Origin: a virus
DNA: 64,000 nucleotides
IMG/VR virus record: IMGVR_UViG_3300037418_004082
Reading direction: 5' to 3' (one strand)
Translations under genes and position numbers: made by a program
Notes under the pieces: generated by a model
Databases searched by the model: none
The model's input: only the letters and a program-made list of their open reading frames with translations
Told to the model about the DNA's origin: nothing
In this document: positions 10,043 through 53,099 of the stretch, in pieces
How the letters are laid out: each line of letters starts with the position of its first letter
How positions within the stretch are numbered: position 1 is the stretch's first letter

Positions 10043-11314
10043 ATGTTCGACGCTTACGACGCTTACTTGGCCATGCAGCAGAAGCAGGCCGCCGACGCTC
10101 TGGTCCCCGGTCAGGTGGGCATGGGCCCGACGCCCGGCGTCACCGGCATGCTCGACTCCGACGGTGGCGCCGCGGAGAACTCGGCCATCGCCAACCAGCG
10201 CGCCGCCATCCAGGAAGCCGCGCTGATCCAGGGCAACGCCGATGCCGGCGCCGGCTACTCGACGCCCCCGGCGGCCCAGAGCCCCTCGCTGCAGATGGAG
10301 AACGACGTCAAGGCCGCGTTCGTCATCGACCACGCGATCAACATGGCCGAGGACATGTACCTCGACTGGAAGCTGTCGAAGGTCGCCGCGACCGACGAGC
10401 AGAAGGCTCACGCCAAGGCCGTCATGAAGGCCAACCTCGCCGGCCCCGAGCGCTCCTACGGCGCCCACAACCGCGGCACGGCCCCCACCGGCTACCAGCA
10501 GGTGCAGTCGGCGATGGAGTCCGCGCACGCCAACGCGTTCCCCAACCAGAACGCCGGCCGCCCCGCCGTCCTGGGCAACGGCCCGCAGCAGCTCGAAGGG
10601 CTGGAGCGCCTGGCCGCGACGATGGGCCCCGACCACGGCCCCAACCTGGCGCAGCGCGCCGGTGCCGCCCTGGCCGGTCTGCCCGCGAAGGCGTGGAGCG
10701 CCATCAACCACAACACCGCCACCCGCGCGGGCGCGGCCGGCGTCGCCGCCCTGGGTGCTGCCGGCGCGGGTTACGCCGCGGCGCAGAGCCAGAAGGCCGC
10801 CTCGTTCAACGGCTACACGCTGCAGAGCCCCCTGAAGCAGACCCTGGGCCGCCGTGCCATGGGCATCGTGGACGGCGCCACCCAGACCGTGCAGAACATC
10901 GCCTCCAACGTCTCGCTGCCCCAGGTTGCGGGCGCGGCGATGCTGGCCGGCGGTGGTGCGGCGGCGGGCTACGCCGCGGCGCAGAACACCGACCTGGACA
11001 AGGCGGCCTCCGTGCTGGGCCAGGCTCGCGACATGGCGGTGGCCGGCTACGGTCGGGCGCGCCAGGCGGCGGGCTCCGCCTACGGCACCGCGGCGGAGTT
11101 CGTGAACGACCACCAGTTCGCGGCCGGCGCCGCGGCGGGTGTGGGCGCGGGCGTCGCCGGCCAGATGGCCGCGCAGGCCGCTGCCCAGCAGATGGGCCTG
11201 GCCCGTCCGCAGAACCCCAGCCTGGCGGCCCAGAAGGAAGCCTCGCTGGCCTACGCGGAGAACGCCGGCATCGAGTTCGCGCTGGCCTACTTGAACGGCC
11301 AGGTCAAGCTCTAA
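10043..11314 (+). CDS. Ala/Gly-rich putative internal head (ejection/core) protein
   Basis: N-terminus MFDAYDAYLAMQQKQAA; motifs KVAA, KAAS, KEAS; repeated AGYAAAQ glycine-zipper segments. Confidence 0.7.
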   Translation: MFDAYDAYLAMQQKQAADALVPGQVGMGPTPGVTGMLDSDGGAAENSAIANQRAAIQEAALIQGNADAGAGYSTPPAAQSPSLQMENDVKAAFVIDHAINMAEDMYLDWKLSKVAATDEQKAHAKAVMKANLAGPERSYGAHNRGTAPTGYQQVQSAMESAHANAFPNQNAGRPAVLGNGPQQLEGLERLAATMGPDHGPNLAQRAGAALAGLPAKAWSAINHNTATRAGAAGVAALGAAGAGYAAAQSQKAASFNGYTLQSPLKQTLGRRAMGIVDGATQTVQNIASNVSLPQVAGAAMLAGGGAAAGYAAAQNTDLDKAASVLGQARDMAVAGYGRARQAAGSAYGTAAEFVNDHQFAAGAAAGVGAGVAGQMAAQAAAQQMGLARPQNPSLAAQKEASLAYAENAGIEFALAYLNGQVKL

Positions 11315-16407: not shown

Positions 16408-17355
16408 ATGAGCAGCACCTACGAGCAGTACACCATCCAGGAGATCAAGGCCATCAACGCTGGTTTCATCAACCAGCTCCGTGAGGGCCAGGAGTCGCAG
16501 GAGAAGGCCGCTTCCGCCATCAAGGAAGAGCTGATCCTGACGATCCTCCGCGAAGACGGCGTGTCGCGCCGCCTGATCCCCCTGCGTCCGACCTCCAACG
16601 CGGAGCTGACGCCCGACGCCGCGAACCCGGATGTCCCCGCCATGATGGTCCCCGTCGAGCCGGTGATGAACGAGTACCTGGCGACGAACGTGGACTTCAT
16701 GCAGCCCAGCAAGGAAGTCTGGTTCCGGTCGAACGTCGCGTTCATCTACTTCAAGGTGATCAAGTCGAAGACGGTCACCCTGACGGAGATGCAGCTCCTG
16801 GCGAACAACTTCCCCATCCGCTCGTACATCGAGTCGGTGGCGAAGAACGACATCCTCGTCGTCGAGGACATGAGCCTGATGGACGCCATCGAGCGTTCGG
16901 TGGCGAAGTTCCCCGGCACCAACGTGCTGTCGTCCGCCGGCCCCCTGACCAAGGACACCATCGCCGAGGGCAAGAAGGCGATGACCCGCAACCGCCTCGA
17001 CCTGGACCTCATCGTCCTGAACGAGATCACGTACGCGGACATCCTGAAGTGGAACTCGTCCGAGGTCGGTTCGATCATCGAGGCCGACATCATCGAGCAC
17101 GGTCCGAAGGGCCAGCAGGGCAACTACCGCTCGTGGCTGGGCTACAAGTGGGTGACCACGATCAACGAGGACGTGATCCCGGAGAACGTGATCTACTACC
17201 TGCCGCCCCAGCGCTACCTGGGCAACGGGTACATCCTCTCGGAGGCCGAGCAGTTCCTGGAGTTCCGCGAGGGCATCCTGCGCACCAACACGCGCGAGAT
17301 CATCGCCCGCGGCATCCTGAACCCCCGCGGCCCGATCAAGCACAACCTGACCTAA
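16408..17355 (+). CDS. Major capsid protein (HK97-fold)
   Basis: 315 aa, extreme GC3 bias, position after protease/scaffold/decoration; pattern EDMSLM...LDLDLIVLNEITYADILKW...WLGYKWVTTI. Confidence 0.8.
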   Translation: MSSTYEQYTIQEIKAINAGFINQLREGQESQEKAASAIKEELILTILREDGVSRRLIPLRPTSNAELTPDAANPDVPAMMVPVEPVMNEYLATNVDFMQPSKEVWFRSNVAFIYFKVIKSKTVTLTEMQLLANNFPIRSYIESVAKNDILVVEDMSLMDAIERSVAKFPGTNVLSSAGPLTKDTIAEGKKAMTRNRLDLDLIVLNEITYADILKWNSSEVGSIIEADIIEHGPKGQQGNYRSWLGYKWVTTINEDVIPENVIYYLPPQRYLGNGYILSEAEQFLEFREGILRTNTREIIARGILNPRGPIKHNLT

Positions 17356-28227: not shown

Positions 28228-29727
28228 ATGACCTTCAACGCACGCGACATCGGGTTCGGCCCCGCGGGCATCTCGGTGAGCGGCCGTGCGTTGCCCGCTT
28301 TCGTGGAGCCCGCGCGCATCACGAACGACACCACGCCCTACCCCCTGCAGCGCGAGGTGCTCACCGTCGGGCTGACGCACCAGGTGCGCTTCAACCTGGC
28401 GGCCGCGCCGCCGCCGGGCGCCGTCAAGAGCCTGGTGGTGGGCAAGCTCACGTACTTCGAGCCCGACTTCGAGATCGTGGGCAAACGCCTCGTGTGGAAA
28501 CGAGGCGTGCTCCCGCTGGGCACGACGCTCGTGTTCGAGGCCGTCGGCACCGATCAGGTGCACCGGCGTCTTGACGTCGTCCCGGTCCTGACGCCGGGGC
28601 AGACGACGTTCGAGCTGTTCGCGCCGCCCGCGGGCCCGCCGGAGGTGTACGTGAACGGCCTGCGTTACGATGAGCGCGCCTTCACCGTGCGAGGCCGCAC
28701 GATCCACTGGCACGAGGCCCTGGTCCCCGGGGCTCGCTTCGTGGTGGTCTACCCCATCACGCCGGAGGGCGCGCATCTCTACCAACTTGACACCGTTCCC
28801 TTCGGTCCGCAGCACGGGTCGAACGTCGAGCTGTCGATCGAAGCACTCGACACCCTGTCGTTGCGCGTGTACTTCCGTGGTCAGCGGCTCACGCCGTTGG
28901 TGGACTACGCCGTGTCGCTCGACCAGTTGACGATTCTGACGCCCTTGGAATCGGTACATGGTGACCTGCTACAGGTCGCCATTCCGACGTCCTCGACGTT
29001 CTTCCAGGCCACCACGACGGATCGCGAGTTTCCGACCCAGGTGTTCACGAAGGCAAACGCCGTCGTCACGGCACCGGGCACGACGGTGGCCTTGCCCAAC
29101 CCGGGCGACACGAGCGTGCTGTCGGTCAACGGCCTGATGTACGCGGAGAGCAAGGGCTACACCCGCACCCCGTCGGTCCTGACCTGGGCGGATGCGTCCC
29201 TGACGTTGGCCGCGGGCGACGAGTTCAGCCTGCTGGGCTTCAACACACCCGACGCGCTGCACGTGCGCGAGTTCAACGGCCAGGTGGGCTACCCCACCTT
29301 CGACCTGGGCGAGAAGGCCGCGGACATCCGCAAGAGCCTGGTGTTCGTCTCCGCGGGCGCCAGCTACGGCGGCGAGCTGTACGCGGGCCGCCAGTACCTG
29401 TCCTTCCCCTCCGACCACGAGGTCGCCTGGACCGGCCCGTTCCCGCTCAAGGCCACCGATCGCGTGGTCGTGGTCTACCTGCGCTCCCCGGCACTGGCCG
29501 GCGCGCTGACCATCGAGACCCACCAGGTGACCATGGCGGAAGAGGGTCAGCCCTTCGCCCGCCGGATGAAGCGCGCCCCCAAGGAGCCGTCGGCCGTCGT
29601 GGCGGCGCTCAATGGCGCGCGGCTGGTGAGCCCCAAGAACTTCACGGTGAACGATGACGCCTTCGTCTACCTCGACCACGACGTGCCGCTCGCGGTCGGC
29701 GACGTGATCACCCTACTTTACCGGTAG
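28228..29727 (+). CDS. Structural protein of repeated small beta-sandwich modules
   Basis: About six repeats of V(Y/F)xNG...(Y/F)...GD...(Y/L). Confidence 0.65.
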   Translation: MTFNARDIGFGPAGISVSGRALPAFVEPARITNDTTPYPLQREVLTVGLTHQVRFNLAAAPPPGAVKSLVVGKLTYFEPDFEIVGKRLVWKRGVLPLGTTLVFEAVGTDQVHRRLDVVPVLTPGQTTFELFAPPAGPPEVYVNGLRYDERAFTVRGRTIHWHEALVPGARFVVVYPITPEGAHLYQLDTVPFGPQHGSNVELSIEALDTLSLRVYFRGQRLTPLVDYAVSLDQLTILTPLESVHGDLLQVAIPTSSTFFQATTTDREFPTQVFTKANAVVTAPGTTVALPNPGDTSVLSVNGLMYAESKGYTRTPSVLTWADASLTLAAGDEFSLLGFNTPDALHVREFNGQVGYPTFDLGEKAADIRKSLVFVSAGASYGGELYAGRQYLSFPSDHEVAWTGPFPLKATDRVVVVYLRSPALAGALTIETHQVTMAEEGQPFARRMKRAPKEPSAVVAALNGARLVSPKNFTVNDDAFVYLDHDVPLAVGDVITLLYR

Positions 29728-29881
29728 GCTTTTGCTCCTCCGGCTGCTTGGGCCGGGGCAGGAAGTGGTGGATCAGCGGCATGGCCAGGTCGTCGGCCAT
29801 GTGCACGAGACCGCCCAGCGCCTTGGGCGCCCCTTCGGCATCCATGGCGGTCTTGGCGAGGTAGAGTTCGTACGGGCGCAT
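29708..29881 (-). CDS. 57-aa putative internal head protein with MRP tag (absent from ORF track)
   Basis: GAGGT SD then MRPYELYLAKTAMDAEG...KVG; directly downstream of the portal. Confidence 0.65.
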   Translation of the reverse strand: MRPYELYLAKTAMDAEGAPKALGGLVHMADDLAMPLIHHFLPRPKQPEEQKPTGKVG

Positions 29882-31945: not shown

Positions 31946-32715
31946 GGTGCGATCTCTTTCAGCAGCTCGTGATGCAGGTGGTCCACGTGGGCGTCGATGG
32001 CGGCCAGGCGCGAGCGCTGGACGTCGGCCGCCGGGGAGGGCAGTTGCTTGCGCACCTGGTGCGCCACCACCCGACCCACGTCGCTCGACAGGTGGTCGAG
32101 CGCCGGCTGACAGTCGGCCAGCTCGTGCGGGCAGCAGACGAGGCCCGCCCGGTGGAGCTGCACAGCGATGTACGCCTTGACCTCTTCGCTCAAGGGCGTC
32201 AGCCGGTCGATAACCCGCATGAGCCGGTGAGCCCACGCGATCTCGTGCGGGTCCAGCTCCTGCGTCAAGGTGAAGTCCACGGGCCGCCCGTTGAAGGCCA
32301 CCGCGGCCTTCTCGAACATGTGCCAGTGCTCGAAGACGTCGGGGTCGTAGAGCGTCTGGCGGGCGAACAGGAGGCTCGTGGTCTCGTGGGCGGTCAAGCC
32401 CAATGATTCCATCAGCGTTTCGGGCTCGTACTGCACCCAGACGGGCCCCAGCTCGCGTTCCGCGCGAACGGCCAAGCCCAGGGCGGTGCCGGCGGGCCGG
32501 GCGGCCTGCTTCTGGACCCCGGGCTGTTCGAGGTGCTGGACGCCGGACGTCAGCAGCCGCGCGCCCACGCGCTCGGCCACCGCCTTGCGGTCGCGCGACG
32601 AGTCCAGCAGGTCCGCAACCGACTTGAGGCCGGAGACCACCTGCTGGACCTGCTGCTCGCGTTTCGCGCGCTCCGCTTCGTCCGGCGCGCCGGGGACGCT
32701 AGGCGTGGGGAGCAC
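31942..32715 (-). CDS. Hypothetical head-module protein
   Basis: Coupled to the portal; contains QKQAA. Confidence 0.65.
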   Translation of the reverse strand: MLPTPSVPGAPDEAERAKREQQVQQVVSGLKSVADLLDSSRDRKAVAERVGARLLTSGVQHLEQPGVQKQAARPAGTALGLAVRAERELGPVWVQYEPETLMESLGLTAHETTSLLFARQTLYDPDVFEHWHMFEKAAVAFNGRPVDFTLTQELDPHEIAWAHRLMRVIDRLTPLSEEVKAYIAVQLHRAGLVCCPHELADCQPALDHLSSDVGRVVAHQVRKQLPSPAADVQRSRLAAIDAHVDHLHHELLKEIAP

Positions 32716-33748
32716 GCGCGCTGACCAGCAGCATGCGCTGCTGCGGAAGCTCCAGCTCCGCGAGCGCCGCCGCGAACTTGCGCATGTTGCCCCGCACCGC
32801 GAACGCGCCGGGCGCGATGTCCGCGAGCACGTGGTCCGGGATGCCGTGCACGATGTCCTGCAGCGCCATGTGGACGCCCGCGAGCTTGACGTTGGCGGGG
32901 TACATGTCCTCGTCCACCGGGCGGTACGCGATGGCCGGCAGGCCGATCAGACCGACGGCCTGGTCGAAGCCCGCGAGCTTGTCGAGCGTCGCGTAGGCGT
33001 CCCAGAACTCCGCGCCCAGCTCCTCGTCGTGTGCGAGCTTGCACAGCTCGTTGTACGCCGTCATGAAGCCGTCGTCGAAGCGGTGCACGGGACGGTACGC
33101 GTGCGGCAGGTCCACGTTGCGGGCGCTCGCCGCCTTGCGCAGCCCGTCGAGGTGCGCGGCCTCGTCGTGGTTCTGGCGGATGATTGCGACGCGCTGGCGC
33201 ACGGAGTCGATGACGTGCGACCGCTTCACGGCTTGCGCGGCCTGCTTCACGATGGCCGGCACCGGGATGTTGGCCTCGGTCAGTACCTCGTCGAGCACGG
33301 CGGCGGTCTTGTGGACCTCCTCCAGCGGCAGCTCGTTCGGCCGGAAGCTGTGCGCGGACGCGTAGGCCGCCTGGACCTCCGTCATCACGGGCGCCTCCGA
33401 CGCCGCCTTCTGCACCGGCTCCTCCAGCATGGGGAGGATGATGTCCTCCACACCGTGGATCGCGGCCGCGTACTTGATCTGGTCGCGGACGAAGTTGCGG
33501 TCGTCCACGTTGCCGATCTGGGAGGCGGTCTTCGTGAAGTAGAAGGCCGCCAGCCAGGTGTCCGCGGCCGTGTCGCAGGCGAACTTCTTGAGCTTGGGCC
33601 AGGCGTACAGGGTCTTCTCGGCGCGCGTGGCCTCGCCCGGGGCCTCGGCGGCCGCCTTCACGAACTCCGGGATGGCGGACTCGCCGTGGTCGTGGATGTG
33701 CCGGGTCAGCACCGCGCTGGTGGTGTCGTCGTGGTAGTCGAACAGCAT
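32699..33748 (-). CDS. Putative head protein rich in K-x-A motifs (349 aa)
   Basis: MLFDYHDD start; VKAAA, TKTAS, QKAAS, HKTAA, VKQAA, RKAAS, VKLAG. Confidence 0.7.
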   Translation of the reverse strand: MLFDYHDDTTSAVLTRHIHDHGESAIPEFVKAAAEAPGEATRAEKTLYAWPKLKKFACDTAADTWLAAFYFTKTASQIGNVDDRNFVRDQIKYAAAIHGVEDIILPMLEEPVQKAASEAPVMTEVQAAYASAHSFRPNELPLEEVHKTAAVLDEVLTEANIPVPAIVKQAAQAVKRSHVIDSVRQRVAIIRQNHDEAAHLDGLRKAASARNVDLPHAYRPVHRFDDGFMTAYNELCKLAHDEELGAEFWDAYATLDKLAGFDQAVGLIGLPAIAYRPVDEDMYPANVKLAGVHMALQDIVHGIPDHVLADIAPGAFAVRGNMRKFAAALAELELPQQRMLLVSARAPHA

Positions 33749-33761
33749 GGAAGGCGTCTCC

Positions 33762-34178
33762 CTAGTAGGCCGGAAGGCCGACGGCCTTGCGCAGAGCGGC
33801 GTAGGTGTCACGATCGCGCAGGTAGCACACCGTCACGGTCTTGATGGAATTATCGCCCCGGCGCGCCGCGTTCACCAGAAGCACGTACTTCCAGCCGCGG
33901 AAGGTCACCCGCATCGACTCGCCGTCGCCATGACGGATGGGGGCGCCGTTGACGCGCTGGCCGTCGGACTCCAGCACCTTGGTGTTGATGGAGTCCGACG
34001 TCACGTGGAGCACTTCCAGCTTGTCGTTGTCCTCCTGGCTCTTGTTGAAGTGCGGATCTTCGTCCTCCTGGAGCACGAAGGTCGTCGCCGCGTTGACCCT
34101 GTCCTTCAACAGGGCCACGATCTCGGGCGTGTGCTCGGGCTGCTTACGCGGCGCGGCCGGTTTGATGTCCATCGTCAA
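33762..34178 (-). CDS. Hypothetical protein
   Basis: AAGGAGG SD, coding-like bias. Confidence 0.65.
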   Translation of the reverse strand: MTMDIKPAAPRKQPEHTPEIVALLKDRVNAATTFVLQEDEDPHFNKSQEDNDKLEVLHVTSDSINTKVLESDGQRVNGAPIRHGDGESMRVTFRGWKYVLLVNAARRGDNSIKTVTVCYLRDRDTYAALRKAVGLPAY

Positions 34179-38427: not shown

Positions 38428-38766
38428 GTGGGAAGCGAAAAAGATACGACGTTGAAGCGGTTCTTGGAGGCCCGGAAGTCCTTCCGGTCGGCCGTCGAGG
38501 AACTTAAGTTCCCGGCGTACTCCAAAGTGGTGACCCCTGCTTTGCATGATACCACTAAATTAGCCAAGCTGACGCGTTCATTAACCACCGACAAGCAAGT
38601 CGCCGTGCAGCAGCACGCCCACGACATCATCGCGTCGAGCCGACGCGCAGTTGCCCTGCGGAACAAGACCTTCCTCGACCACGTCGCGGACGCCAAGGCC
38701 GCGCGTCCGATGCAGGATCGGTACGAGGAGAGCCGCCTGGCGCGCTACGAAAGCGAGCGGTTCTAA
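38428..38766 (+). CDS. Hypothetical basic protein
   Basis: GAGGA SD with GTG start; coupled to the gp25-like gene. Confidence 0.55.
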   Translation: MGSEKDTTLKRFLEARKSFRSAVEELKFPAYSKVVTPALHDTTKLAKLTRSLTTDKQVAVQQHAHDIIASSRRAVALRNKTFLDHVADAKAARPMQDRYEESRLARYESERF

Positions 38767-39221
38767 TGGCCCTGTTCGGGATGTCGGCCGGCACGTTCGA
38801 GAAGATCGGCACCAACCTCTACCGCATCAACCTCAAGAAGGGCTTCAGCGAGGCGCGTTTCGCGACCGACACCGACAAGCTCCTGTTCGAGGTATTCTAT
38901 TACGTGCTGACGCCCCTCGGATCCATCCCCACGGACCCGGACGCGGGCACGCTCATCCCCAACATGATCGGCCGGGTCGCGCTCAACAGCAGCGTCTCCG
39001 CGCAGAACATGATGGTCAACGAGCTGAACCGCGCCGAAGCCGGCATCAAGTTGCGCCAGCAGCAGAACCCCGACCTGCCCGCCACCCAACGGTTGGGCCG
39101 GCTCGAAGCCGAACGCATCGAAGTCAACACGCCCGAACAAGCCATCGACATGGTGCTGGCGATCACGGACGGCACCGGGAAGCGCGTCGGCTTCACCATC
39201 ACGACCGGGCTGGGAGGCTAA
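38766..39221 (+). CDS. Baseplate wedge protein, gp25-like
   Basis: LLFEVFYYVLTPLGSIPTDPDAGT followed by LGRLEAERIEV. Confidence 0.7.
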   Translation: MALFGMSAGTFEKIGTNLYRINLKKGFSEARFATDTDKLLFEVFYYVLTPLGSIPTDPDAGTLIPNMIGRVALNSSVSAQNMMVNELNRAEAGIKLRQQQNPDLPATQRLGRLEAERIEVNTPEQAIDMVLAITDGTGKRVGFTITTGLGG

Positions 39222-39224
39222 CTC

Positions 39225-40700
39225 ATGGCGACCATCAACGACGTCATCTTGCAGCAAGCGGAGCAGTTCTTGGTGGAGGCCATCAAGGCGGGCTTCGAGG
39301 GCGACGCCGACGCGATCGACCTGCGCCCCGGCACGCCCCAGTACGACCTGTTCGTGCGGCCCCAGCTTCCCGTGCTGGCGCGCGTCATCGCCAAGCTGAA
39401 CGACGCGGACCGCAAGGCCACGCCCCTGAACTTCGACCAGCTCACCCAGACGGAGCTGTTCGCCATCGGTGACCGCTGGCAGGTCAACCCGACCACGGGC
39501 CGCAAGGCCGGCGGCTCCGTCCGCATCAAGCTGAAGGAGCGCGTGGCCGTGTCGGTGTCTCCCGCCGACGAGATCGTGCAGAACGGCCTCGTCTACCACC
39601 CGACCGCCGTGGTGGACCTGGCCGCGAGCGACCTTTCGTTCGAGTCCGTGCTGGACTACTACTACGCGGACGTCCAGATCGAGTCGGACGACGTGGGATC
39701 GAAGTACATCACGGGCATCGACACCAAGTTCACGATGGCGGCTTACGACGGCGACACGAACCTGATCGAGATCGTCGCCGTGACGCCGATCAGCGGGGGC
39801 TTCGACGTCGAGGCGAACGCCGACTACTACCAGCGCATCCGCACGACGAGCGTGGTGCGCAACTTGATCAACAACTTGAGCATCAACAACGTGCTCAAGG
39901 ACCAGTTCGCGGGTTCGATCCAGCGCTTGCTGGTGGTGGGCTACCAGGACGCGGAGATGCGCCGCGACCTCAAGACGGTGGTGGACCCCTTGTTGGGGAA
40001 CATCAGCCTGCACCTGGGTGGGCACACGGACATCTACGTGAAGACTCCGATCATCCGCAAGACCGTCGAGATCTTCGTGCCGTCGGGCGGGTTCGAGATC
40101 GATATGAGCGCGTACCTTGCCTTGCTGAAGGTGCATTCCGTCACGCGAAAGAGCGATCCTACCACGCCGCTCTACTTCGCCCTCACCAACACCCGCGTCG
40201 ATACGCGTTACTCCGCGCGTGACGGAGTGCGCCTGTTCGTGGACCCGGGCGTCGTGAACGACACGATCGTCGTGGATATGTCGTACGCGCCCGACGTCGT
40301 CGAGATCCAGGCGTTCGTGGATAGCGAGGACCAGCACGTGACGAACGCCGACCAGCTCGTGCGTTTCTTCCACCCGGTGTGGCTGTCGAGCCTGATCTAC
40401 GTGCAGGGCATTGGCACCGGCGACTCCGCCGCGTCGGCCGCGATGGAGGTGTACCTGGAGGGGCTGACGAACGCGGAGCCCCTGGCCGTGAGCCGCCTGA
40501 CCGAAGCGATCTACAAGTCGAGCGCGGTGAACGTCGTGCAGGACTACGCGCTGACCGCCCAGGTCTACTACGGCGACGGCACCCAGGTGGAGCTAACCGA
40601 CAGCAACGTGCTCGTGATCCCCGACAACCTCGCGAAGGGTTTCACGCAGCGAGTGGCGTGTTACGTGAACGAGGCGATTCGTCTCGTGCCAGTGGGTTAG
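39225..40700 (+). CDS. Baseplate J / gp6-like wedge protein
   Basis: DLRPGT...DLF, GRKAGGSV, PISGGFDVEANADYYQRI. Confidence 0.8.
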   Translation: MATINDVILQQAEQFLVEAIKAGFEGDADAIDLRPGTPQYDLFVRPQLPVLARVIAKLNDADRKATPLNFDQLTQTELFAIGDRWQVNPTTGRKAGGSVRIKLKERVAVSVSPADEIVQNGLVYHPTAVVDLAASDLSFESVLDYYYADVQIESDDVGSKYITGIDTKFTMAAYDGDTNLIEIVAVTPISGGFDVEANADYYQRIRTTSVVRNLINNLSINNVLKDQFAGSIQRLLVVGYQDAEMRRDLKTVVDPLLGNISLHLGGHTDIYVKTPIIRKTVEIFVPSGGFEIDMSAYLALLKVHSVTRKSDPTTPLYFALTNTRVDTRYSARDGVRLFVDPGVVNDTIVVDMSYAPDVVEIQAFVDSEDQHVTNADQLVRFFHPVWLSSLIYVQGIGTGDSAASAAMEVYLEGLTNAEPLAVSRLTEAIYKSSAVNVVQDYALTAQVYYGDGTQVELTDSNVLVIPDNLAKGFTQRVACYVNEAIRLVPVG

Positions 40701-41336: not shown

Positions 41337-42944
41337 GTGCGCGAAGTCCTTCAAGCCATCCACCAGCAGGAGCAGCTCGGGGCACCACCCGGCGCCTACA
41401 CCGGACGCGTCGGTCGGACGGGCGGGGCCAAGGGGGTCCCCGACCGTTGGGTCGTGCTGCAGGACGTCCGGGCGGCGGATGGTCAGCCCGTCACCGATCA
41501 CGTCTGGTTCCCGGCCACGCACGAGTTCGCGCCTTACGCCCACGGCGAGCGGGTGCGCTTCGTCGCCAAGGTCAACCCCTACTTCAAGGGGCCCAGCCAC
41601 GCCCGCGAGCTGGACTACGCGTTCAGCCGACCCAAGGAGGTCATGAAAGCCGCCATGCTGCAATCTGGAGAGCCCGGCTACGCCCGTCTGTTCGCCGCGC
41701 GCTTGCGCAACCGCCTGGGCCAGGGCGACGCCTCGACGTGGGCGATCGAGCAGGAGTATAAGGCGGCCATGGAGATGAACCCCGACGCCCAGCGCAAGCT
41801 CAACGCCCTGGAAGGCTCCGAAGGCGGGTGCTTCGCCGACGGGGTGATGGAGGCGGCCAAGGAGCTGGCACGCGCGGCCGGTCGCGACCTCGTGCTACCG
41901 GAGGACGTGGTGGCGGCCGTCCGTCAGACGCCCAAGGAGGCCAGCCTGTACCGGGCCAAGATCCTCGCCAACCAGGCACTCGCACCGCACGAGATGGATG
42001 GCTTCCACGCGTTGCTGGACCGCTTCACGCGCCTCAAGGCCCGCCAGCAAGGCTTCGGTCCCGACACCCTGATCGAGGGCGGCTACGCGCACAACCCGGC
42101 GTCGAAGTCGAACTTCGTGGGCTTCAACGTGAGCCACGGCGAGCAGGCAGAGCGCGGCGGTGGCCGCTTCACGGTGCAGCACCACGTGGGCGACCCGACC
42201 GAAGGTGTGACCGACTGGCTCGCGACGGCGGAGGCCCACCGTGGGCAAGGCCAAGCCAAGCGCACGGCCGCGCTGATGGACGACGTGATGGCCGCCATGG
42301 GAGCGCGTCGCCTGGTCAGCCGACCGCAGCACCCGGCCGTCGCCAAGTACCGGGCCCAGATGGGCTACAAGCCGGGCGGCAACCCGTTCATGGGCGAGGC
42401 GGAGAAGTACGTGCCGGACACCCCGGCCGTGGCCCGGGACCGGGCGCGCTTCAAGGAGGCCGCGGAGAAGGCGCCGACGCGTGACGACTGGAAGACCCGG
42501 CCGGGCGTGCGCGCCATGGTCACTGACAGCGACGGCAAGGTGCTCCTGCTGCGTCGCCCCGACGACGAGGAGTTCCACCCCGGCACGTGGAACCTGCCGG
42601 GCGGGGCCAAGGAGGACGACGAGACCTTCCTGAACGGCGCGCTGCGCGAGCTGAAGGAGGAGACCAACCTCGACGCCTACCCGACCAGCCAGGCCCACGA
42701 GTTCAAGTTCCCGGGCGGCATGGGCAAGGCGTTCATGATGAGCCTGCGGGACGGCGCCAAGCTGAAGCTGGATCCGCGCGAGGTGGACGAGGCCGGCTGG
42801 TTCTACCCGGACCACCTGCCCAAGAAGCTCTTCCCGCAGACCGCGAGCACCGTCAAGGCGCTCTTGAAGTTGCAGGCTTCCCGCGAGAAGTCTGCCGGTT
42901 TCCGCCCGTACGAGGTGTACCTGGGCACGTACTTCCACGAGTAG
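41337..42944 (+). CDS. Multidomain protein: OB-like, histone-fold-like, GNAT acetyltransferase, Nudix hydrolase
   Basis: Nudix box GGAKEDDETFLNGALRELKEETNL; GNAT motif A HRGQGQA and AKYRAQMGY; FADGVMEAAKELARAAGRDLVLPEDV. Confidence 0.75.
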   Translation: MREVLQAIHQQEQLGAPPGAYTGRVGRTGGAKGVPDRWVVLQDVRAADGQPVTDHVWFPATHEFAPYAHGERVRFVAKVNPYFKGPSHARELDYAFSRPKEVMKAAMLQSGEPGYARLFAARLRNRLGQGDASTWAIEQEYKAAMEMNPDAQRKLNALEGSEGGCFADGVMEAAKELARAAGRDLVLPEDVVAAVRQTPKEASLYRAKILANQALAPHEMDGFHALLDRFTRLKARQQGFGPDTLIEGGYAHNPASKSNFVGFNVSHGEQAERGGGRFTVQHHVGDPTEGVTDWLATAEAHRGQGQAKRTAALMDDVMAAMGARRLVSRPQHPAVAKYRAQMGYKPGGNPFMGEAEKYVPDTPAVARDRARFKEAAEKAPTRDDWKTRPGVRAMVTDSDGKVLLLRRPDDEEFHPGTWNLPGGAKEDDETFLNGALRELKEETNLDAYPTSQAHEFKFPGGMGKAFMMSLRDGAKLKLDPREVDEAGWFYPDHLPKKLFPQTASTVKALLKLQASREKSAGFRPYEVYLGTYFHE

Positions 42945-42950
42945 GTTCGT

Positions 42951-43628
42951 ATGTCCCAGGTTAGCCGCTGGTCAGCGCGTCGTGACGACATCGTTCATCT
43001 CTTGAAGAACGGCATGTCGATCGCGGAGCTGGCCGAAACATACGGTGTTAAACCCAAGCACATGCGACGCGTGTTGCTACGAATGCACATCGACGCGTGC
43101 TGGCTGCGTAACAAGTATTGGGCCAATGTGCGTAATCTGCGAGCATTGATGGAGTCTGGTTACAGCCGTACGCAGATTGCACACCTGTACCACGTGGACG
43201 AGAACCTGGTCGAGAAGTACCTCAAGTTCCACGACCTGGATCCGCGTGATCCCGTGACCAGGTTCAAGGCCAAGTTGGCGGTTCGGGAGAACGGCTGCAT
43301 CGAGTGGACCGGGTACGTCGAGAAGGCGTCCGGCTACGGCGTGTTCACGTACAAGACGGGAACGCGTGATTATTTCTATGCGCACCGCTTCAGCTTCGTG
43401 CTGCAGCGCGGGGACATCCCGGCGGGGATGACGCTCGACCACACCTGCGTCAACAAGCGGTGCGTGAACCCGGACCACCTGGAGGTGGTGACCGCCTCGG
43501 AGAACAGCAAGCGCATGCACGCCCGCCGGAACATGCTCTGCGAGATCGCCAAGCGGCTCCTGCAGTCGGAGTACCCCTTCGTAGACCGGATCGCCCTGTT
43601 GGACCCCCTCACCCCCGGAGGTAGCTAA
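42951..43628 (+). CDS. HNH endonuclease with N-terminal HTH (free-standing homing type)
   Basis: CIEWTG...GYG...AHRFSF...LDHTCVNKRCVNPDHLEVVTASEN; MSIAELAETYGV HTH. Confidence 0.85.
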   Translation: MSQVSRWSARRDDIVHLLKNGMSIAELAETYGVKPKHMRRVLLRMHIDACWLRNKYWANVRNLRALMESGYSRTQIAHLYHVDENLVEKYLKFHDLDPRDPVTRFKAKLAVRENGCIEWTGYVEKASGYGVFTYKTGTRDYFYAHRFSFVLQRGDIPAGMTLDHTCVNKRCVNPDHLEVVTASENSKRMHARRNMLCEIAKRLLQSEYPFVDRIALLDPLTPGGS

Positions 43629-43629
43629 A

Positions 43630-43953
43630 ATGCGCCCTGCAATCGTCTATCTATTGTTGAAGGAAGCCTCCGATCAGGCCCCCGTCGCTCCCCCGCCGCT
43701 CGACCTGATGGTCGTCGGCTCCGACGTGAAGGGCCACCTGGCGGCCCGGTCCAAGGGCTACGTCCCGCTCGTCCTGCTGGGCGAGGAAGGCCAGGAACCG
43801 ACGCACCTGGTCTACACCCACCGCCGGGGGTACAACGCCGCCGTGCACGCCCTGCACGCGGACCGGTCGTCCTTCATGGCGCACGCCCGCGGGCTGCTGG
43901 CGCCGCCCACCCCCACCCCTGGGGGTAACCCCTTCTTGCCGGCGCAGGCGTAA
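43630..43953 (+). CDS. Small protein with MRP tag
   Basis: MRPAIVYLLLKEAS; last gene before the terminator. Confidence 0.65.
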   Translation: MRPAIVYLLLKEASDQAPVAPPPLDLMVVGSDVKGHLAARSKGYVPLVLLGEEGQEPTHLVYTHRRGYNAAVHALHADRSSFMAHARGLLAPPTPTPGGNPFLPAQA

Positions 43954-43983
43954 GCCCGCTCCCACAGACCCTATAAAGCTCCC

Positions 43984-44013
43984 GGCCACCCCCACCCCTG
44001 GGGGTGGCCTTTT
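43984..44013 (+). terminator. Intrinsic terminator ending the late baseplate operon
   Basis: GGCCACCCCC-acccct-GGGGGTGGCC-TTTT. Confidence 0.75.
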
Positions 44014-44095
44014 AATGCCTAAAAACAGGCTCGAAAACCCCTATCTATAGTTGTATCCCACATTTACGCCCGGTCTGCCGGGCAAGGAGGTCACT

Positions 44096-44335
44096 ATGAC
44101 GAGCACGTCCCTCGCCCAGACGAAGGTCTTGGGCTTCTCCTGCTCGAACGACCGCCAGGTGCTCTTGGCTCACGGCCGGGTCCTCAAGACGGCCCTCGAC
44201 GCGGTGGTCGCCAAGCACGGCGCGTTCACGGCCGTCGGCAACACGCTCAACGACGCCTTCATGGACGTCGTCCGCCAGTTGCGCGCGATGGACGGCTTGC
44301 AGCCGGGCCAGGTGCACAACTTCTTCCCGGACTAG
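44096..44335 (+). CDS. Hypothetical early protein
   Basis: AAGGAGG SD. Confidence 0.7.
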   Translation: MTSTSLAQTKVLGFSCSNDRQVLLAHGRVLKTALDAVVAKHGAFTAVGNTLNDAFMDVVRQLRAMDGLQPGQVHNFFPD

Positions 44336-50378: not shown

Positions 50379-51569
50379 ATGACCCGTACCGCTTCCGCCC
50401 CCGCCCTCTCCCTGGCCGCCGTTTCCGGCAAGCTGCAGGCCATCCGCCAGGAGCTGAACGCCGTGTGCTTCGAGCGCGGCCCCGTCGTCAACGCCATCCT
50501 GCTCGCGCTCGTCGCGAAGCAGAACGTCATCCTGCTGGGGCCCCCGGGCACCGGCAAGTCGATGCTCGTGCGCGAGGTCGTCCGCCGCGTGACCAACACG
50601 CGCGACTTCGAGAAGATGCTCAACAAGTTCATCTCGCCCGAAGAGCTGTTCGGCCCCGTGTCGATGACCAAGCTCCAGCAGGACGTGTTCGAGCGCGTGA
50701 TCGACGGCTATTTGCCGGACGTGCACATCGCGTTCCTCGACGAGGTCGGCAAGTGCTCGACGGCGGCGCTGAACACGATGCTGGACGTGATGATCGACAA
50801 GGTCTTCCGCAACGGCAACCAGACCATCAACGTGCCGATGATGTCGGTCATCGGCGCCTCGAACGAGGTGCCGTCGGAGGAGGGCCTGCAGGCGCTGTGG
50901 GACCGCTTCCTGCTGCGCTTCGAGGTCAAGCGCCTGTCGCCCGCCGGCCGCTTCAAGATGATGCGCGCGGAGTGCGACGGCCTGTACAACCAGGCGCCCA
51001 CGGCCACGATGGACCTGCAGGAGCTGCAGTGGATCCAGGCGCAGCTCTACAACGTCGTCGTGTCCGACGACGTGCTGTCCGACCTGAACGCGCTGGTCGG
51101 CGAGCTGGACCAGGAAGGCGTATCGCCGACCGACCGCCGCGTCGCGTTGTGCACGCGGTTGGTGCGTGCCAGCGCGCTCATCAACGGCCGCATGGACGTG
51201 ACCGAAGACGACGTCGAGGTACTGCAGGACGTGCTGTGGGACAACCTGGAAGACATCCAGACGGCCCGCAAGTACGTCATCAAGCACTCGAACCCGCTGA
51301 AGAGCCGGGCCGTCGAGATCCTCGACTCCGTCAAGGCGACGCACGAGAAGGTGATGGACCTGGTGCGGCAGCACAACGGCGACGTCACGCACACCCAGCA
51401 GCAGACCATGGCCGACAACAGCGAGGTCATGAAGCTCAAGAAGGAGCTGCAGGAGTCCATCAAGCGCAACTCCGGCGCGCCCTGCCTGCAGGACTTGAAG
51501 GACATGCTGGACGACGTCGAGCGCCTGCAGAAGGAGTTCGTCGAAGCCGGCACCGGCCTCAAGATGTAA
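50379..51569 (+). CDS. MoxR-family (RavA-like) AAA+ ATPase
   Basis: Walker A GPPGTGKS, Walker B IAFLDE, AALNTML, GASNE, ALWDRF. Confidence 0.9.
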   Translation: MTRTASAPALSLAAVSGKLQAIRQELNAVCFERGPVVNAILLALVAKQNVILLGPPGTGKSMLVREVVRRVTNTRDFEKMLNKFISPEELFGPVSMTKLQQDVFERVIDGYLPDVHIAFLDEVGKCSTAALNTMLDVMIDKVFRNGNQTINVPMMSVIGASNEVPSEEGLQALWDRFLLRFEVKRLSPAGRFKMMRAECDGLYNQAPTATMDLQELQWIQAQLYNVVVSDDVLSDLNALVGELDQEGVSPTDRRVALCTRLVRASALINGRMDVTEDDVEVLQDVLWDNLEDIQTARKYVIKHSNPLKSRAVEILDSVKATHEKVMDLVRQHNGDVTHTQQQTMADNSEVMKLKKELQESIKRNSGAPCLQDLKDMLDDVERLQKEFVEAGTGLKM

Positions 51570-51575
51570 CGCCCC

Positions 51576-51605
51576 GGGCACGCGAGCGCCGTTGCTCGCG
51601 TGCCC
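51576..51605 (+). other. Perfect 12-bp intergenic hairpin
   Basis: GGGCACGCGAGC-gccgtt-GCTCGCGTGCCC between the AAA and VWA genes. Confidence 0.55.
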
Positions 51606-51623
51606 TCCCTTGGAGGCATCCCC

Positions 51624-53099
51624 ATGAACATCATACGCACCTCGCCCATGGACGTCGGCAACTGGTCCGTCGCCCTGGCGCAGAGCGTACCGCTCCAGAC
51701 GACGGTGACCCAGGGAGAACAGAAGTTCCCGGGTTTCCACGACCTGGTGGCGGACGTGTTCCAGGCGCTCTATCAGCCGGCTCCCGTCTTCGACAACCAG
51801 AAGACGATCACGCTGCACGAGTTCCTGCTACGCGACATCGTCTACACCCAGGAGTTCGCCAACCTGGCGCCGATCAGCCAGACCAACCTCATCAACAGCG
51901 CGGTCGCCGCCAACGTTCTCGCGGAGCAGATCCTGCAACGCATGAGCACGTCGATGGCCGACCGGTTGGCGGAGGAATGGCGCGCCTCCAACGCTCTGGC
52001 CCAGGCCGAAGCGGAGGTGGCGACCCTCCAGGCCGCGGTCGCCGCCAACCCGGGTGACCCCGCGTTGCAGCAGCAACTGGCCGAAGCCCAGGCCCGGCTG
52101 CAGGCCGCGTACGACGAGCTGACCGCGCAGCTCCCCATCGAGACCCTGCAAGGCGACACCGATAAGATGCGCAACACGGCGCGCCAGGCGTCGGCGCAGG
52201 CCATCACCGCGGTCAACGAGCTGATCGAGCTGGAGACCGTCTTCGGCACCGATCGCGCGGCCAGCCTGCAGACGAAGCTGCACCTGCAGCAGAAGATCCG
52301 CGGCAACCGCAAGATGCAGATGCTCGCGGCCTTGGCGGGCCGTATGCGCCGCATCGCGCTCGCCAAGAAGAACTCGGTCGTTCGGCACTTCAAGCAGGAG
52401 ATCATGGGCGTCACGGTGGGCAAGGACCTGGCCCACGTGGTGCCCGCGGAGCTGGGCTTGTTGGGCAACCCCACCACCAAGCCGCTCTTCCTCAAGAAGT
52501 TCCACGAGGGCCAGCTCATGGTCTACGACCAGAAGGGCGAGGAGAAGCTGGGCCAAGGGCCGATGGTCCTCCTCGTGGACTCCACGGGCTCGATGCGGGG
52601 CGAGCCGGAGGTGTGGAGCAAGGCCGTCGTGCTGGGCTTCCTCGCCATCGCGGAGTCGGAGAAGCGCGACGTGTTCGTCGCGGCCTTTGGCTCGTCAGGC
52701 GACGACCTCGTGACGTGGTCGTTCCTCTACAAGAGCGACCCGCGCAGCGTCAAGTCGTCGGACATCCTGGGTTTCGCGGAATACTTCATGGACGCGAGCG
52801 GCACCGATCTGGAGAAGCCGCTGCTCTGGGCCGCGAAGTTCATCGCCAAGCCCGACAAGCCGCAGAACGCGGCCGACGTCGTGATGTTGACCGACGGCGA
52901 GAGCCGTTTCAGCGGCCGGTTCCTGCAGCAATGGAAGACCCTGCAGGAAGCCACCGGGTTCCATTCGTTCGGCGTGATGATCGGCACGTCAAGCGGTATG
53001 GCAACCCTTCGTCAAGCCATCCAAAACGTCGTGTACGTGACCGACCTGACCCAGGACGGTGACGTGACCGACGTGCTATTCAAAGGAGTCGTACACTAA
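51624..53099 (+). CDS. VWA-domain protein (ViaA-like)
   Basis: MIDAS DSTGSM, GTDLEKPL, MLTDG; EIMGVTVGKDLAHVVPAEL. Confidence 0.85.
   Translation: MNIIRTSPMDVGNWSVALAQSVPLQTTVTQGEQKFPGFHDLVADVFQALYQPAPVFDNQKTITLHEFLLRDIVYTQEFANLAPISQTNLINSAVAANVLAEQILQRMSTSMADRLAEEWRASNALAQAEAEVATLQAAVAANPGDPALQQQLAEAQARLQAAYDELTAQLPIETLQGDTDKMRNTARQASAQAITAVNELIELETVFGTDRAASLQTKLHLQQKIRGNRKMQMLAALAGRMRRIALAKKNSVVRHFKQEIMGVTVGKDLAHVVPAELGLLGNPTTKPLFLKKFHEGQLMVYDQKGEEKLGQGPMVLLVDSTGSMRGEPEVWSKAVVLGFLAIAESEKRDVFVAAFGSSGDDLVTWSFLYKSDPRSVKSSDILGFAEYFMDASGTDLEKPLLWAAKFIAKPDKPQNAADVVMLTDGESRFSGRFLQQWKTLQEATGFHSFGVMIGTSSGMATLRQAIQNVVYVTDLTQDGDVTDVLFKGVVH

Follow-up and report, generated by a model that had tools for sequence, protein, structure and literature searches.

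The 64,000-nucleotide (nt) stretch of DNA analysed here, referred to as the window, comes from IMG/VR virus record IMGVR_UViG_3300037418_004082 and encodes at positions 41337–42944 (plus strand) a 535-amino-acid (aa) protein, P0001, that joins an OB-fold domain, a predicted GNAT acetyltransferase and a Nudix hydrolase in a single chain. Comparison of its sequence with those of related phages places P0001, a multi-enzyme fusion encoded in a late operon, among proteins of the "polyvalent" type; the phage itself is an orphan with a high-GC genome of ~200 kb. A K-x-A-type motif does mark the boundaries between its modules as these are defined by alignment. The junction motifs are, on the same comparison, the K-x-A-[A/S/G/M] ends of a short N-terminal peptide, the tag, that heads many unrelated genes of this phage clade, and the same tetrapeptide is enriched in head-assembly proteins. 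We propose, with a probability of roughly 45%, that P0001 is made late in infection, loaded into the prohead, cut at K-x-A and injected. A preliminary description of the gene had suggested such a virion-loaded polyprotein, and every peptide quoted in it is found in the translation of the open reading frame (ORF).

The source IMG/VR virus record is 153 kb long, and its estimated CheckV completeness of 74% corresponds to a genome of ~200 kb, with a GC content of ~65%; the window belongs to an uncultivated large soil phage with TerL, a capsid protein and baseplate genes. A nucleotide search against the phage collection gave no close match to known phages, a protein search against known phages gave only Nudix-level matches at 30–47% identity, and the closest terminase among isolated phages is 29% identical. 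The P0001 gene starts with GTG, with a GGGAG Shine-Dalgarno sequence 6 nt upstream, and an identical protein (P0002) is recorded on a separate 12-kb contig. Its modules and the sites between them are arranged as follows.

41337..42944, plus strand: 535-aa multi-module ORF (P0001), open for 535 codons, GC content at third codon positions (GC3) 0.91
41337..41648, plus strand: N-dom, an N-terminal helix and OB-fold barrel, aa 1–104, with an AlphaFold2 (AF2) predicted local distance difference test (pLDDT) score >90
41646..41657, plus strand: site 1, K104-A-A-M, at the C-terminal edge of the OB domain and followed by a disordered stretch, aa 109–117
41658..41759, plus strand: small module GEPGYAxxFAxxLxxxLGQ, aa 108–141, common to P0003 and P0004 and spotted by eye
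41760..41771, plus strand: site 2, K142-A-A-M, just ahead of the MEMNPD segment
41772..41933, plus strand: low-confidence helical segment, aa 146–199, Pfam AAA_lid_2 E 0.03
41934..41945, plus strand: site 3, K200-E-A-S, aligned with the tag ends of stand-alone GNAT homologues
41946..42452, plus strand: predicted minimal GNAT-fold domain, ~aa 204–372, with the CoA-loop motif HRGQGQA and the AF2 fold
42453..42464, plus strand: site 4, K373-E-A-A, where the last GNAT helix ends and a disordered linker follows
42495..42848, plus strand: Nudix hydrolase domain, aa 387–504, PF00293, with an intact Nudix box
42888..42899, plus strand: site 5, K518-S-A-G, past the Nudix domain, where P0004 has K-R-A-A
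42903..42944, plus strand: C-terminal copy of the tag (RPYEVYL...), then the stop codon, an ending that the N-dom gene of G002 shares

The identity of the three main modules agrees with the preliminary description, at strengths that differ from domain to domain. The Nudix assignment is the firmest: PF00293 matches aa 387–504 with an E-value of 3.4e-18 (66.4 bits against a cut-off of 21.1, covering profile positions 2–129 of 134), and the Nudix box, GAKEDDE-TFLNGAL-RELKEETNL, has every E and R position present with the last G replaced by N, so that the pattern G-x5-E-x7-R-E-L-x-E-E-x-N-L is intact. The box is also kept in P0003, P0004 and P0005. The best scores against NCBIfam equivalogs are 17–39 bits, with cut-offs of 95–449, and the PDB sequence matches are a mixed set; neither source allows a substrate-defined Nudix subfamily (MutT, NudC, RppH, ADPRase or NadM) to be assigned. 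The OB-like domain is likewise confirmed as a fold. Its AF2 strands (residues 19–29, 38–46, 51–59, 72–84, 91–96 and 100–104) form a closed five-stranded beta-barrel that matches nucleic-acid-type OB folds, namely SSB, MCM-N, cold-shock (CSD), Rho and RPA, at Z 5–6.5, with Foldseek E-values of 7e-3 against the PDB and 9e-5 against the viral models of BFVD. An exhaustive HMMER search with aa 1–385 found ~60 clusters of stand-alone proteins of ~100–150 aa that match aa 1–107, and their alignment was the input to the AF2 model. Binding of nucleic acid by this domain is suggested purely by resemblance of fold, at a sequence identity to SSB proteins of 6–14%.

The GNAT domain stands on a weaker footing. 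Pfam PF00583 scores 19.1 bits on aa 274–344, below its cut-off of 20.7, and only the C-terminal half of the profile is covered; however, the acetyl-coenzyme A (CoA) loop and the fold matches agree in pointing to a GNAT. The same HMMER search found three stand-alone proteins of 192–227 aa (P0007, P0008 and P0052) that match aa 199–372, and in their alignment the loop R/Q-x-x-G-x-G/A reads RGQGQA in P0001, RGKGYG in P0007, QRQGYG in P0008 and QGQGIG in P0052. In the AF2 model of the region (pLDDT 69, predicted template modelling score 0.63) helices and strands follow one another as in a GNAT, with a mixed beta-sheet, alpha1-alpha2 and the beta4-alpha3-beta5-alpha4 core. A VIA-align comparison with this model has GNAT-fold proteins as nearly all of its 50 best PDB representatives, at Z 6.2–8.0, a range that is not decisive by itself, and Foldseek gives probabilities of at least 0.95 for the top GNAT matches. 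We accept aa 204–372 as a minimal GNAT fold, as modelled, and predict it to be an acetyltransferase. No further relatives of the GNAT module were found in IMG/VR. The 24-kb contig that carries P0007 and P0052 holds tandem GNAT-type paralogues, each with its own N-terminal tag, and a sigma-like gene nearby.

One domain of the preliminary description is not retained. The segment at aa 145–197 had been read as histone-fold-like and possibly DNA-organising, and both the fold and the role are without support: the Pfam scan of P0001 contains no histone family, AF2 predicts five helices over aa 114–196 at a pLDDT of 47–71, and the neighbours of the segment in the Atlas of structures are AAA-lid-like bundles at a template modelling score of ~0.6, a weak likeness. 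Overall, aa 108–198 contain two short modules, GEPGYAxxFAxxLxxxLGQ and MEMNPD, which recur in different order in P0003 and P0004.

The rationale for treating K-x-A as a boundary mark is that the five sites fall where homologues encoded as separate proteins, or in other fusions, independently place the edges of the modules. At site 1 the relatives have KAAS, KIAM or KIAR. The MEMNPD segment that follows site 2 has the counterparts MEWDPEHL and MQWDPDHL in P0003 and P0004. The stand-alone GNAT homologues start with MNPY(Q/R)xYMxK(S/A)(S/A)G, and residues K-S-A-G, K-S-S-G and K-A-A-M, which close these N-terminal tags, align with K200-E-A-S at site 3. The position of site 4, before the Nudix core, is occupied by KQAG in P0003 and KAAA in P0004, a protein whose own sites lie at residues 12, 86, 209 and 341, with its Nudix domain enclosed by those at 209 and 341. 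Next to sites 1 and 4 of P0001 are stretches where the pLDDT falls below 50, and all five K-x-A of P0001 have A, S, G or M at the fourth position. The claim that these motifs lie at domain boundaries therefore holds in their placement, because the boundaries are set by the homologues, and does not extend to their number, which is at chance within P0001: five K-x-A are present with 4.2 expected, and three K-x-A-[ASG] with 1.06 expected, at a shuffle fraction of 0.084.

The peptide to which the motif belongs is found across the clade. The tag has the form M-x-P-Y-[EQD]-x-[YF]-[LM]-x-K-x-A, K-x-A being its end, and differs between genes at synonymous codon positions, so that its conservation is at the peptide level. 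At least seven genes carry it in L008 and at least eight in L005, with an SNF2 helicase gene among them in each and a GNAT homologue among those of L005. L004 has three tagged genes, including one for P0004, a Nudix-SNF2 fusion, and several genes of the present genome are tagged, including an SNF2 gene, a 423-aa head-module gene (10043–11314) and a 107-aa gene downstream of P0001. The RNA polymerase and sigma-like proteins of these phages are themselves untagged; the polymerase sequence FAYQKFL before GMGVNVK was considered as a tag and rejected, since it appears to belong to the conserved C-terminal region of beta. The tag copy with the best score, MRPYELYLAKTAM, stands at the start of a ~55-aa ORF between convergent genes (29714–29881, minus strand). 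In L016, L019 and L020, phages of low GC whose capsid proteins are 24–30% identical, many genes share another start peptide (MSRWL..., MKWI..., MEWL... or MDWL...), and terminal tags thus seem to be common across the wider capsid lineage.

Counts of K-x-A-[ASGM], their density, their share of all K-x-A-x and the number obtained on reversal are given below for four sets of proteins.

Head module, 12 genes between terminase and capsid: 2718 aa, 33 sites, 12.1 per 1000 aa, 66% of K-x-A-x, 6 when reversed
370-aa protein, 32699–33811, minus strand: 10 sites, 27 per 1000 aa, 83% of K-x-A-x, 0 when reversed
P0001: 535 aa, 5 sites, 9.35 per 1000 aa, 100% of K-x-A-x, 1 when reversed
Other 129 genes: 37,696 aa, 56 sites, 1.49 per 1000 aa, 28% of K-x-A-x (as composition predicts), 52 when reversed

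The motif is enriched ~8-fold in head-assembly proteins, where some of the sites fall within paralogous segments, and its density in P0001 is 6-fold over the genome background, at which rate the Poisson probability of at least five sites in P0001 is 0.0014. Control tetrapeptides (such as R-x-A-[AS], E-x-A-[AS] and K-x-x-A-[AS]) are 4–6 times rarer than K-x-A-[AS] in the head set. The pattern is repeated in the relative L015, with 27 sites in 2774 aa of head-side ORFs versus one site in 2179 aa of tail-side ORFs. Two further features of the head genes bear on cleavage.

16504..16515, plus strand: K33-A-A-S near the N-terminus of the major capsid protein (gene 16408–17355), conserved in L014 and L015
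11780..13192, plus strand: candidate prohead protease, phrog_18299, E ~1e-6

At residues 31–33 the three close phages have the capsid sequences QEKAAS-AIKEEL, SKLAS-VIKEEL and EKVAS-AIKEEL, downstream of sequence that has diverged. Because it is concentrated in head-assembly proteins and present at the capsid protein N-terminus, K-x-A-[ASGM] is a putative prohead-protease cleavage motif. Of the seven K-x-A-[ASG] sites in the candidate protease itself, five lie in the C-terminal half; its sequence matched nothing in Pfam or the PDB and is not similar to the DUF2213 of P0005. The 370-aa protein, which is encoded among tail-module genes, carries its ten K-x-A-[ASG] sites 20–50 aa apart, has no family match in PHROGs or Pfam, and may be scaffold- or core-like and cut to small peptides. 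Outside the window (G000:C1:36552-38009), the four K-x-A-[ASG] sites of a 485-aa protein are confined to residues 1–85, and its N-terminus looks like a multiply cut propeptide.

The Nudix domain hints at a separate link to the head. Its closest relatives are fused either to an SNF2 helicase (P0004) or to a capsid-interior scaffold-like protein: at 47–54% identity, the nearest Nudix domains outside the clade, those of P0005 and L025, are joined to DUF2213/Pa193_gp24 and a coiled coil. The Nudix-DUF2213 fusions occupy the scaffold position, between portal/MuF and the capsid gene. Mature virions have Pa193 gp24, a putative scaffolding protein, attached to the inside of the capsid (PMC11456595). 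A Nudix domain is also part of one PHROG portal family. A Nudix profile search of IMG/VR returned only the P0004 contig again and one more Nudix-DUF2213 contig, and no further relatives of the close Nudix were found there.

The history of the locus suggests how the modules came together. P0001 follows the baseplate genes in the order gp25-like, Baseplate_J-like, a 208-aa gene, then P0001, with gaps of 2–7 nt.

38766..40700, plus strand: gp25-like gene (38766–39221) and Baseplate_J-like gene (39225–40700), upstream of P0001 in the same operon

In the three relatives that show the locus (G001, G002 and L002), baseplate J is followed only by the OB domain and a small C-terminal domain (C-dom). 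In G002 these are two genes, a 126-aa OB gene that ends RPLEV-KAAS-AYQAYLAWVGGY and a stop codon, and at once a separate gene that reads MNPYFAYISMKAAS and then C-dom; in G001 and L002 they form a single protein, 233 and 236 aa long, in which KIAR or KIAM and a tag mark the junction. The window instead reads OB-KAAM, 410 aa, KSAG-FRPYEVYLGTYFHE and a stop codon, then an HNH gene, then MRPAIVYLLLKEAS and C-dom. The 410-aa cassette (the two short helical modules, GNAT and Nudix) is thus flanked by two K-x-A sites of the OB gene, whose reading frame it keeps, and the simplest explanation is that it arose by recombination at tag-coding sequence. Each module of P0001 is known elsewhere in related phages as a separate gene or in a different fusion. 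The GNAT and Nudix modules were not found in G001 or G002, whose records are only 36% and 51% complete. No full-length homologue of P0001 was found beyond its own cluster, and the OB-GNAT-Nudix combination occurs only there; nor was a longer fused form found, in a search rated as weak evidence.

Taken together, the enrichment in head proteins, the capsid site, the identity of the motif with the tag end, the bracketing of the Nudix domain in P0004 and the Nudix-scaffold fusions make loading into the head followed by processing the leading explanation. P0001 is probably co-transcribed late with the baseplate genes, which counts in the same direction, and its delivery with the DNA is hinted at by its operon being late, by the motif that it has in common with head proteins and by the Nudix-scaffold fusions of other phages. 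In this scheme P0001 would enter the prohead, perhaps by way of its C-terminal tag copy, and cleavage at the five sites would release, besides two small peptides, the OB protein (~12 kDa), the GNAT (~19 kDa) and the Nudix protein (~16 kDa), all of which would be carried along with the DNA when the next host is infected. In that cell the GNAT would acetylate a target of host or phage origin, and the Nudix protein would hydrolyse nucleoside-diphosphate-X compounds, for which NAD- or ADP-ribose-derived signals and RNA 5′ ends or caps are candidates.

Several observations weigh against this scheme. P0001 does not have the tag at its own N-terminus, where it starts MREVLQAIHQQ as part of the OB domain, and carries the tag only as internal relics and as the C-terminal copy at aa 523–529. 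The motif count within P0001 by itself is marginal, and K-x-A at the junctions could be a functionless inheritance from tags that were fused. Both the inclusion of M in the motif and the boundary of the head module were chosen after the data had been seen. The protease assignment is one weak PHROG match, the GNAT falls under the Pfam cut-off with a model of mean pLDDT only 69, and the most motif-rich protein, that of 370 aa, is encoded among tail genes, so that the motif is not strictly one of the head module. In distant relatives the modules lie beside RNA polymerase genes and not head genes, which fits an intracellular, transcription-linked role equally well. Finally, the phage is uncultivated, and P0001 is known from its sequence and from models alone.

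The main alternative is that P0001 is a fusion enzyme that stays uncleaved and unpackaged in the cytoplasm late in infection, serving for example nucleotide or RNA-end housekeeping or counter-defence, and that its K-x-A motifs are relics of tags. We consider this possible, with the odds against it. The internal tag copies are indeed degenerate, the P-Y-x-x-Y part having been lost at junctions 3 and 4, and fusion and fission are frequent at the locus among relatives; the untagged N-terminus and the near-chance count of the motif in P0001 alone point the same way. Against it, all five K-x-A keep a small fourth residue, at a density like that of head proteins and 6-fold over background, K-x-A survives at junctions where the remainder of the tag has decayed, and the Nudix relatives are fused to a protein of the capsid interior.

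A second alternative places the function of the tag outside the head. In the distant relatives L004, L005 and L008, stand-alone OB and GNAT genes lie directly upstream of a gene for a fused beta-beta′ RNA polymerase, and the Nudix-SNF2 fusion lies two genes downstream of it. The fused polymerases are 1431–1781 aa in length (L005 9724–15069, L008 8321–12625, L004 3320–7615), and a faint LAGLIDADG match in that of L005 may mark an intein. Their surroundings include sigma-like and SNF2 genes, with SLT-domain genes as well in L008, and most neighbours are tagged. The tag and its K-x-A could accordingly be a docking or sorting signal for the phage multisubunit RNA polymerase, a replication or transcription compartment or a chaperone, with P0001 a transcription accessory whose OB domain binds nucleic acid, whose Nudix domain acts on RNA 5′ ends and whose GNAT modifies the polymerase or a nucleoid protein. 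The position of these genes next to or within two genes of the polymerase, and the lack of a tag on the polymerase and sigma-like proteins, speak for such a role. We nevertheless think it unlikely, as it leaves unexplained both the concentration of the motif between the terminase and capsid genes and its presence at the capsid N-terminus, and as the locus lies in the baseplate operon, away from the polymerase, in this phage and its three closest relatives. Docking could also coexist with packaging in the head if the polymerase cluster were itself packaged in the virion.

A last alternative, that P0001 is a baseplate or tail-tip component anchored by its OB domain and delivering its enzymes from the tail, draws on its tightly spaced synteny right after the gp25-like and J-like genes in four related phages and on the occurrence of OB folds in tail spike proteins (T4 gp5, P2 gpV). 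It is very improbable: the distant stand-alone OB homologues are encoded by the RNA polymerase gene and not by tail genes, there is no match to tail or baseplate families, the structural matches are nucleic-acid-binding OB folds, and T4 Alt provides a case of a head-packaged enzyme encoded beside baseplate genes (PMC5512222).

Returning to prohead loading and processing as the preferred explanation, we hypothesize, as a doubtful but specific extension of it, that one peptide serves as both address and cut mark. The tag, placed at either end of a cargo, would direct it to the prohead; a protease specific for K-x-A followed by a small residue would remove the tag; and recombination within the tag-coding sequence, which many genes have in common, would join cargo genes in frame and so build polyproteins (OB-GNAT-Nudix, Nudix-SNF2) that are cut again into injected enzymes.

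The remainder of the operon is made up of the following features.

42951..43628, plus strand: free-standing HNH endonuclease gene, between P0001 and the C-dom gene
43630..43953, plus strand: 107-aa C-dom gene, which begins with the tag variant MRPAIVYLLLKEAS and is homologous to the C-terminal half of P0006
43984..44009, plus strand: intrinsic terminator closing the baseplate operon, the sole strong terminator of the region

The placement of P0001 at the end of the baseplate operon, as first described, is consequently right in that the gene is near the operon end and inexact in that the HNH and 107-aa genes follow before the terminator. The C-dom gene has no PHROGs or Pfam match, and the 208-aa gene upstream of P0001 has nothing in PHROGs or Pfam beyond a faint, sub-threshold match to Pfam DUF6527. 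The HNH gene is absent at the corresponding spot in G001, G002 and L002. Its location inside a group I intron was considered and rejected, as there is no Rfam intron match in 42700–44100 and the HNH ORF occupies the space between its two neighbours. An insertion of the HNH gene that truncated a longer polyprotein was likewise rejected, since G002 has the same partial tag, stop and new tagged gene without the HNH gene. The tag variant of the C-dom gene (43630–43680, plus strand) has AT-ending codons (TAT CTA TTG TTG) that look atypical for a phage of 65% GC; they adjoin the HNH gene and may represent sequence imported with the endonuclease, or divergence of its target site. Further downstream (50379–53099, plus strand), a MoxR-type AAA+ ATPase (bpMoxR, E 1e-50) is preceded by a DUF6744 protein and followed by a weakly matched VWA-domain protein, a trio that is kept in the relative L002.

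If prohead loading and processing is correct, the clade would possess a previously undescribed prohead-protease specificity, K-x-A then A, S or G, and a sequence rule would follow that predicts packaged and injected proteins across a clade of uncultivated large soil phages. The predicted set comprises an acetyltransferase, a Nudix hydrolase and SNF2 helicases, which would probably be active in the first minutes of infection, and the phage would be one that builds virus-style polyproteins from tagged gene cassettes. A further use might be the loading of capsids with foreign proteins by way of the tag and site, for which the T4 targeting sequence sets a precedent. Should the reading fail, P0001 would still be a clear record of module shuffling at a conserved junction.

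Among known systems, polyvalent proteins are predicted to be multi-domain effectors that are packaged and delivered with the DNA, and GNAT and SNF2 are among their listed domains, whereas Nudix is mentioned only as a neighbour or fusion partner of another domain (PMC5512222, Iyer et al. 2017). Packaging in the head has likewise been proposed for T4 NudE-like Nudix proteins, whose fusion partners are MuF, portal or capsid protease (PMC9503650, Iyer et al. 2022). The statement of the preliminary description that the architecture is unrecognised is therefore right for the OB-GNAT-Nudix combination, which is confined to its own cluster, and too broad for the general type, since polyvalent effectors and head-packaged Nudix proteins had already been predicted (PMC5512222, PMC9503650). 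Like polyvalent proteins, P0001 has several effector-type domains in one polypeptide, in a portal-terminase phage and with domains shuffled between relatives; unlike them, it is small (535 aa), and its modules are delimited by a head-protein motif and not by an internal peptidase, the Pfam scan having found no zincin or other peptidase, no MuF or portal anchor and no ART domain. The resemblance to head-associated Nudix proteins is that Nudix domains lie among late or virion genes and that relatives (P0005, L025) are fused to head proteins; the difference is that the Nudix of P0001 is joined to OB and GNAT domains and not to a head structural domain.

In T4, the capsid-targeting sequence is MKTYQEFIAE, gp21 processes IPI-III and Alt at L/I-x-E, and Alt is an injected enzyme encoded beside baseplate genes. 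The clade tag is similar in being a short N-terminal peptide on unrelated proteins that ends in a motif also present in head-core proteins. It differs in its sequence, M-x-P-Y-E-x-Y-L-x-K-x-A, and in the putative site, K-x-A-[A/S/G], and the internal and C-terminal position of the motif within an enzyme chain, as in P0001, is absent from T4. Giant phages offer a further parallel: the SPN3US prohead protease gp245 cuts at A-X-E, a short motif found repeatedly in propeptides, and phiKZ and 201phi2-1 also process their proteins (PMC10052503, PMC7411985). There, as here, a motif of three to four residues recurs in head, ejection and protease proteins, and the protease has a C-terminal region that is processed in those phages and would be in this one, whereas the present motif has Lys first and a small residue after Ala, its protease is weakly identified, and the motif is so far a feature read from sequence alone. 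A K-x-A followed by a small residue is also reminiscent of the V/L-x-A|S sites of herpesvirus assemblin. What appears to be new here, judged against these systems, is the OB-GNAT-Nudix combination itself, with no built-in peptidase or head anchor predicted and with modules delimited by a tetrapeptide common to head proteins and to the clade tag.

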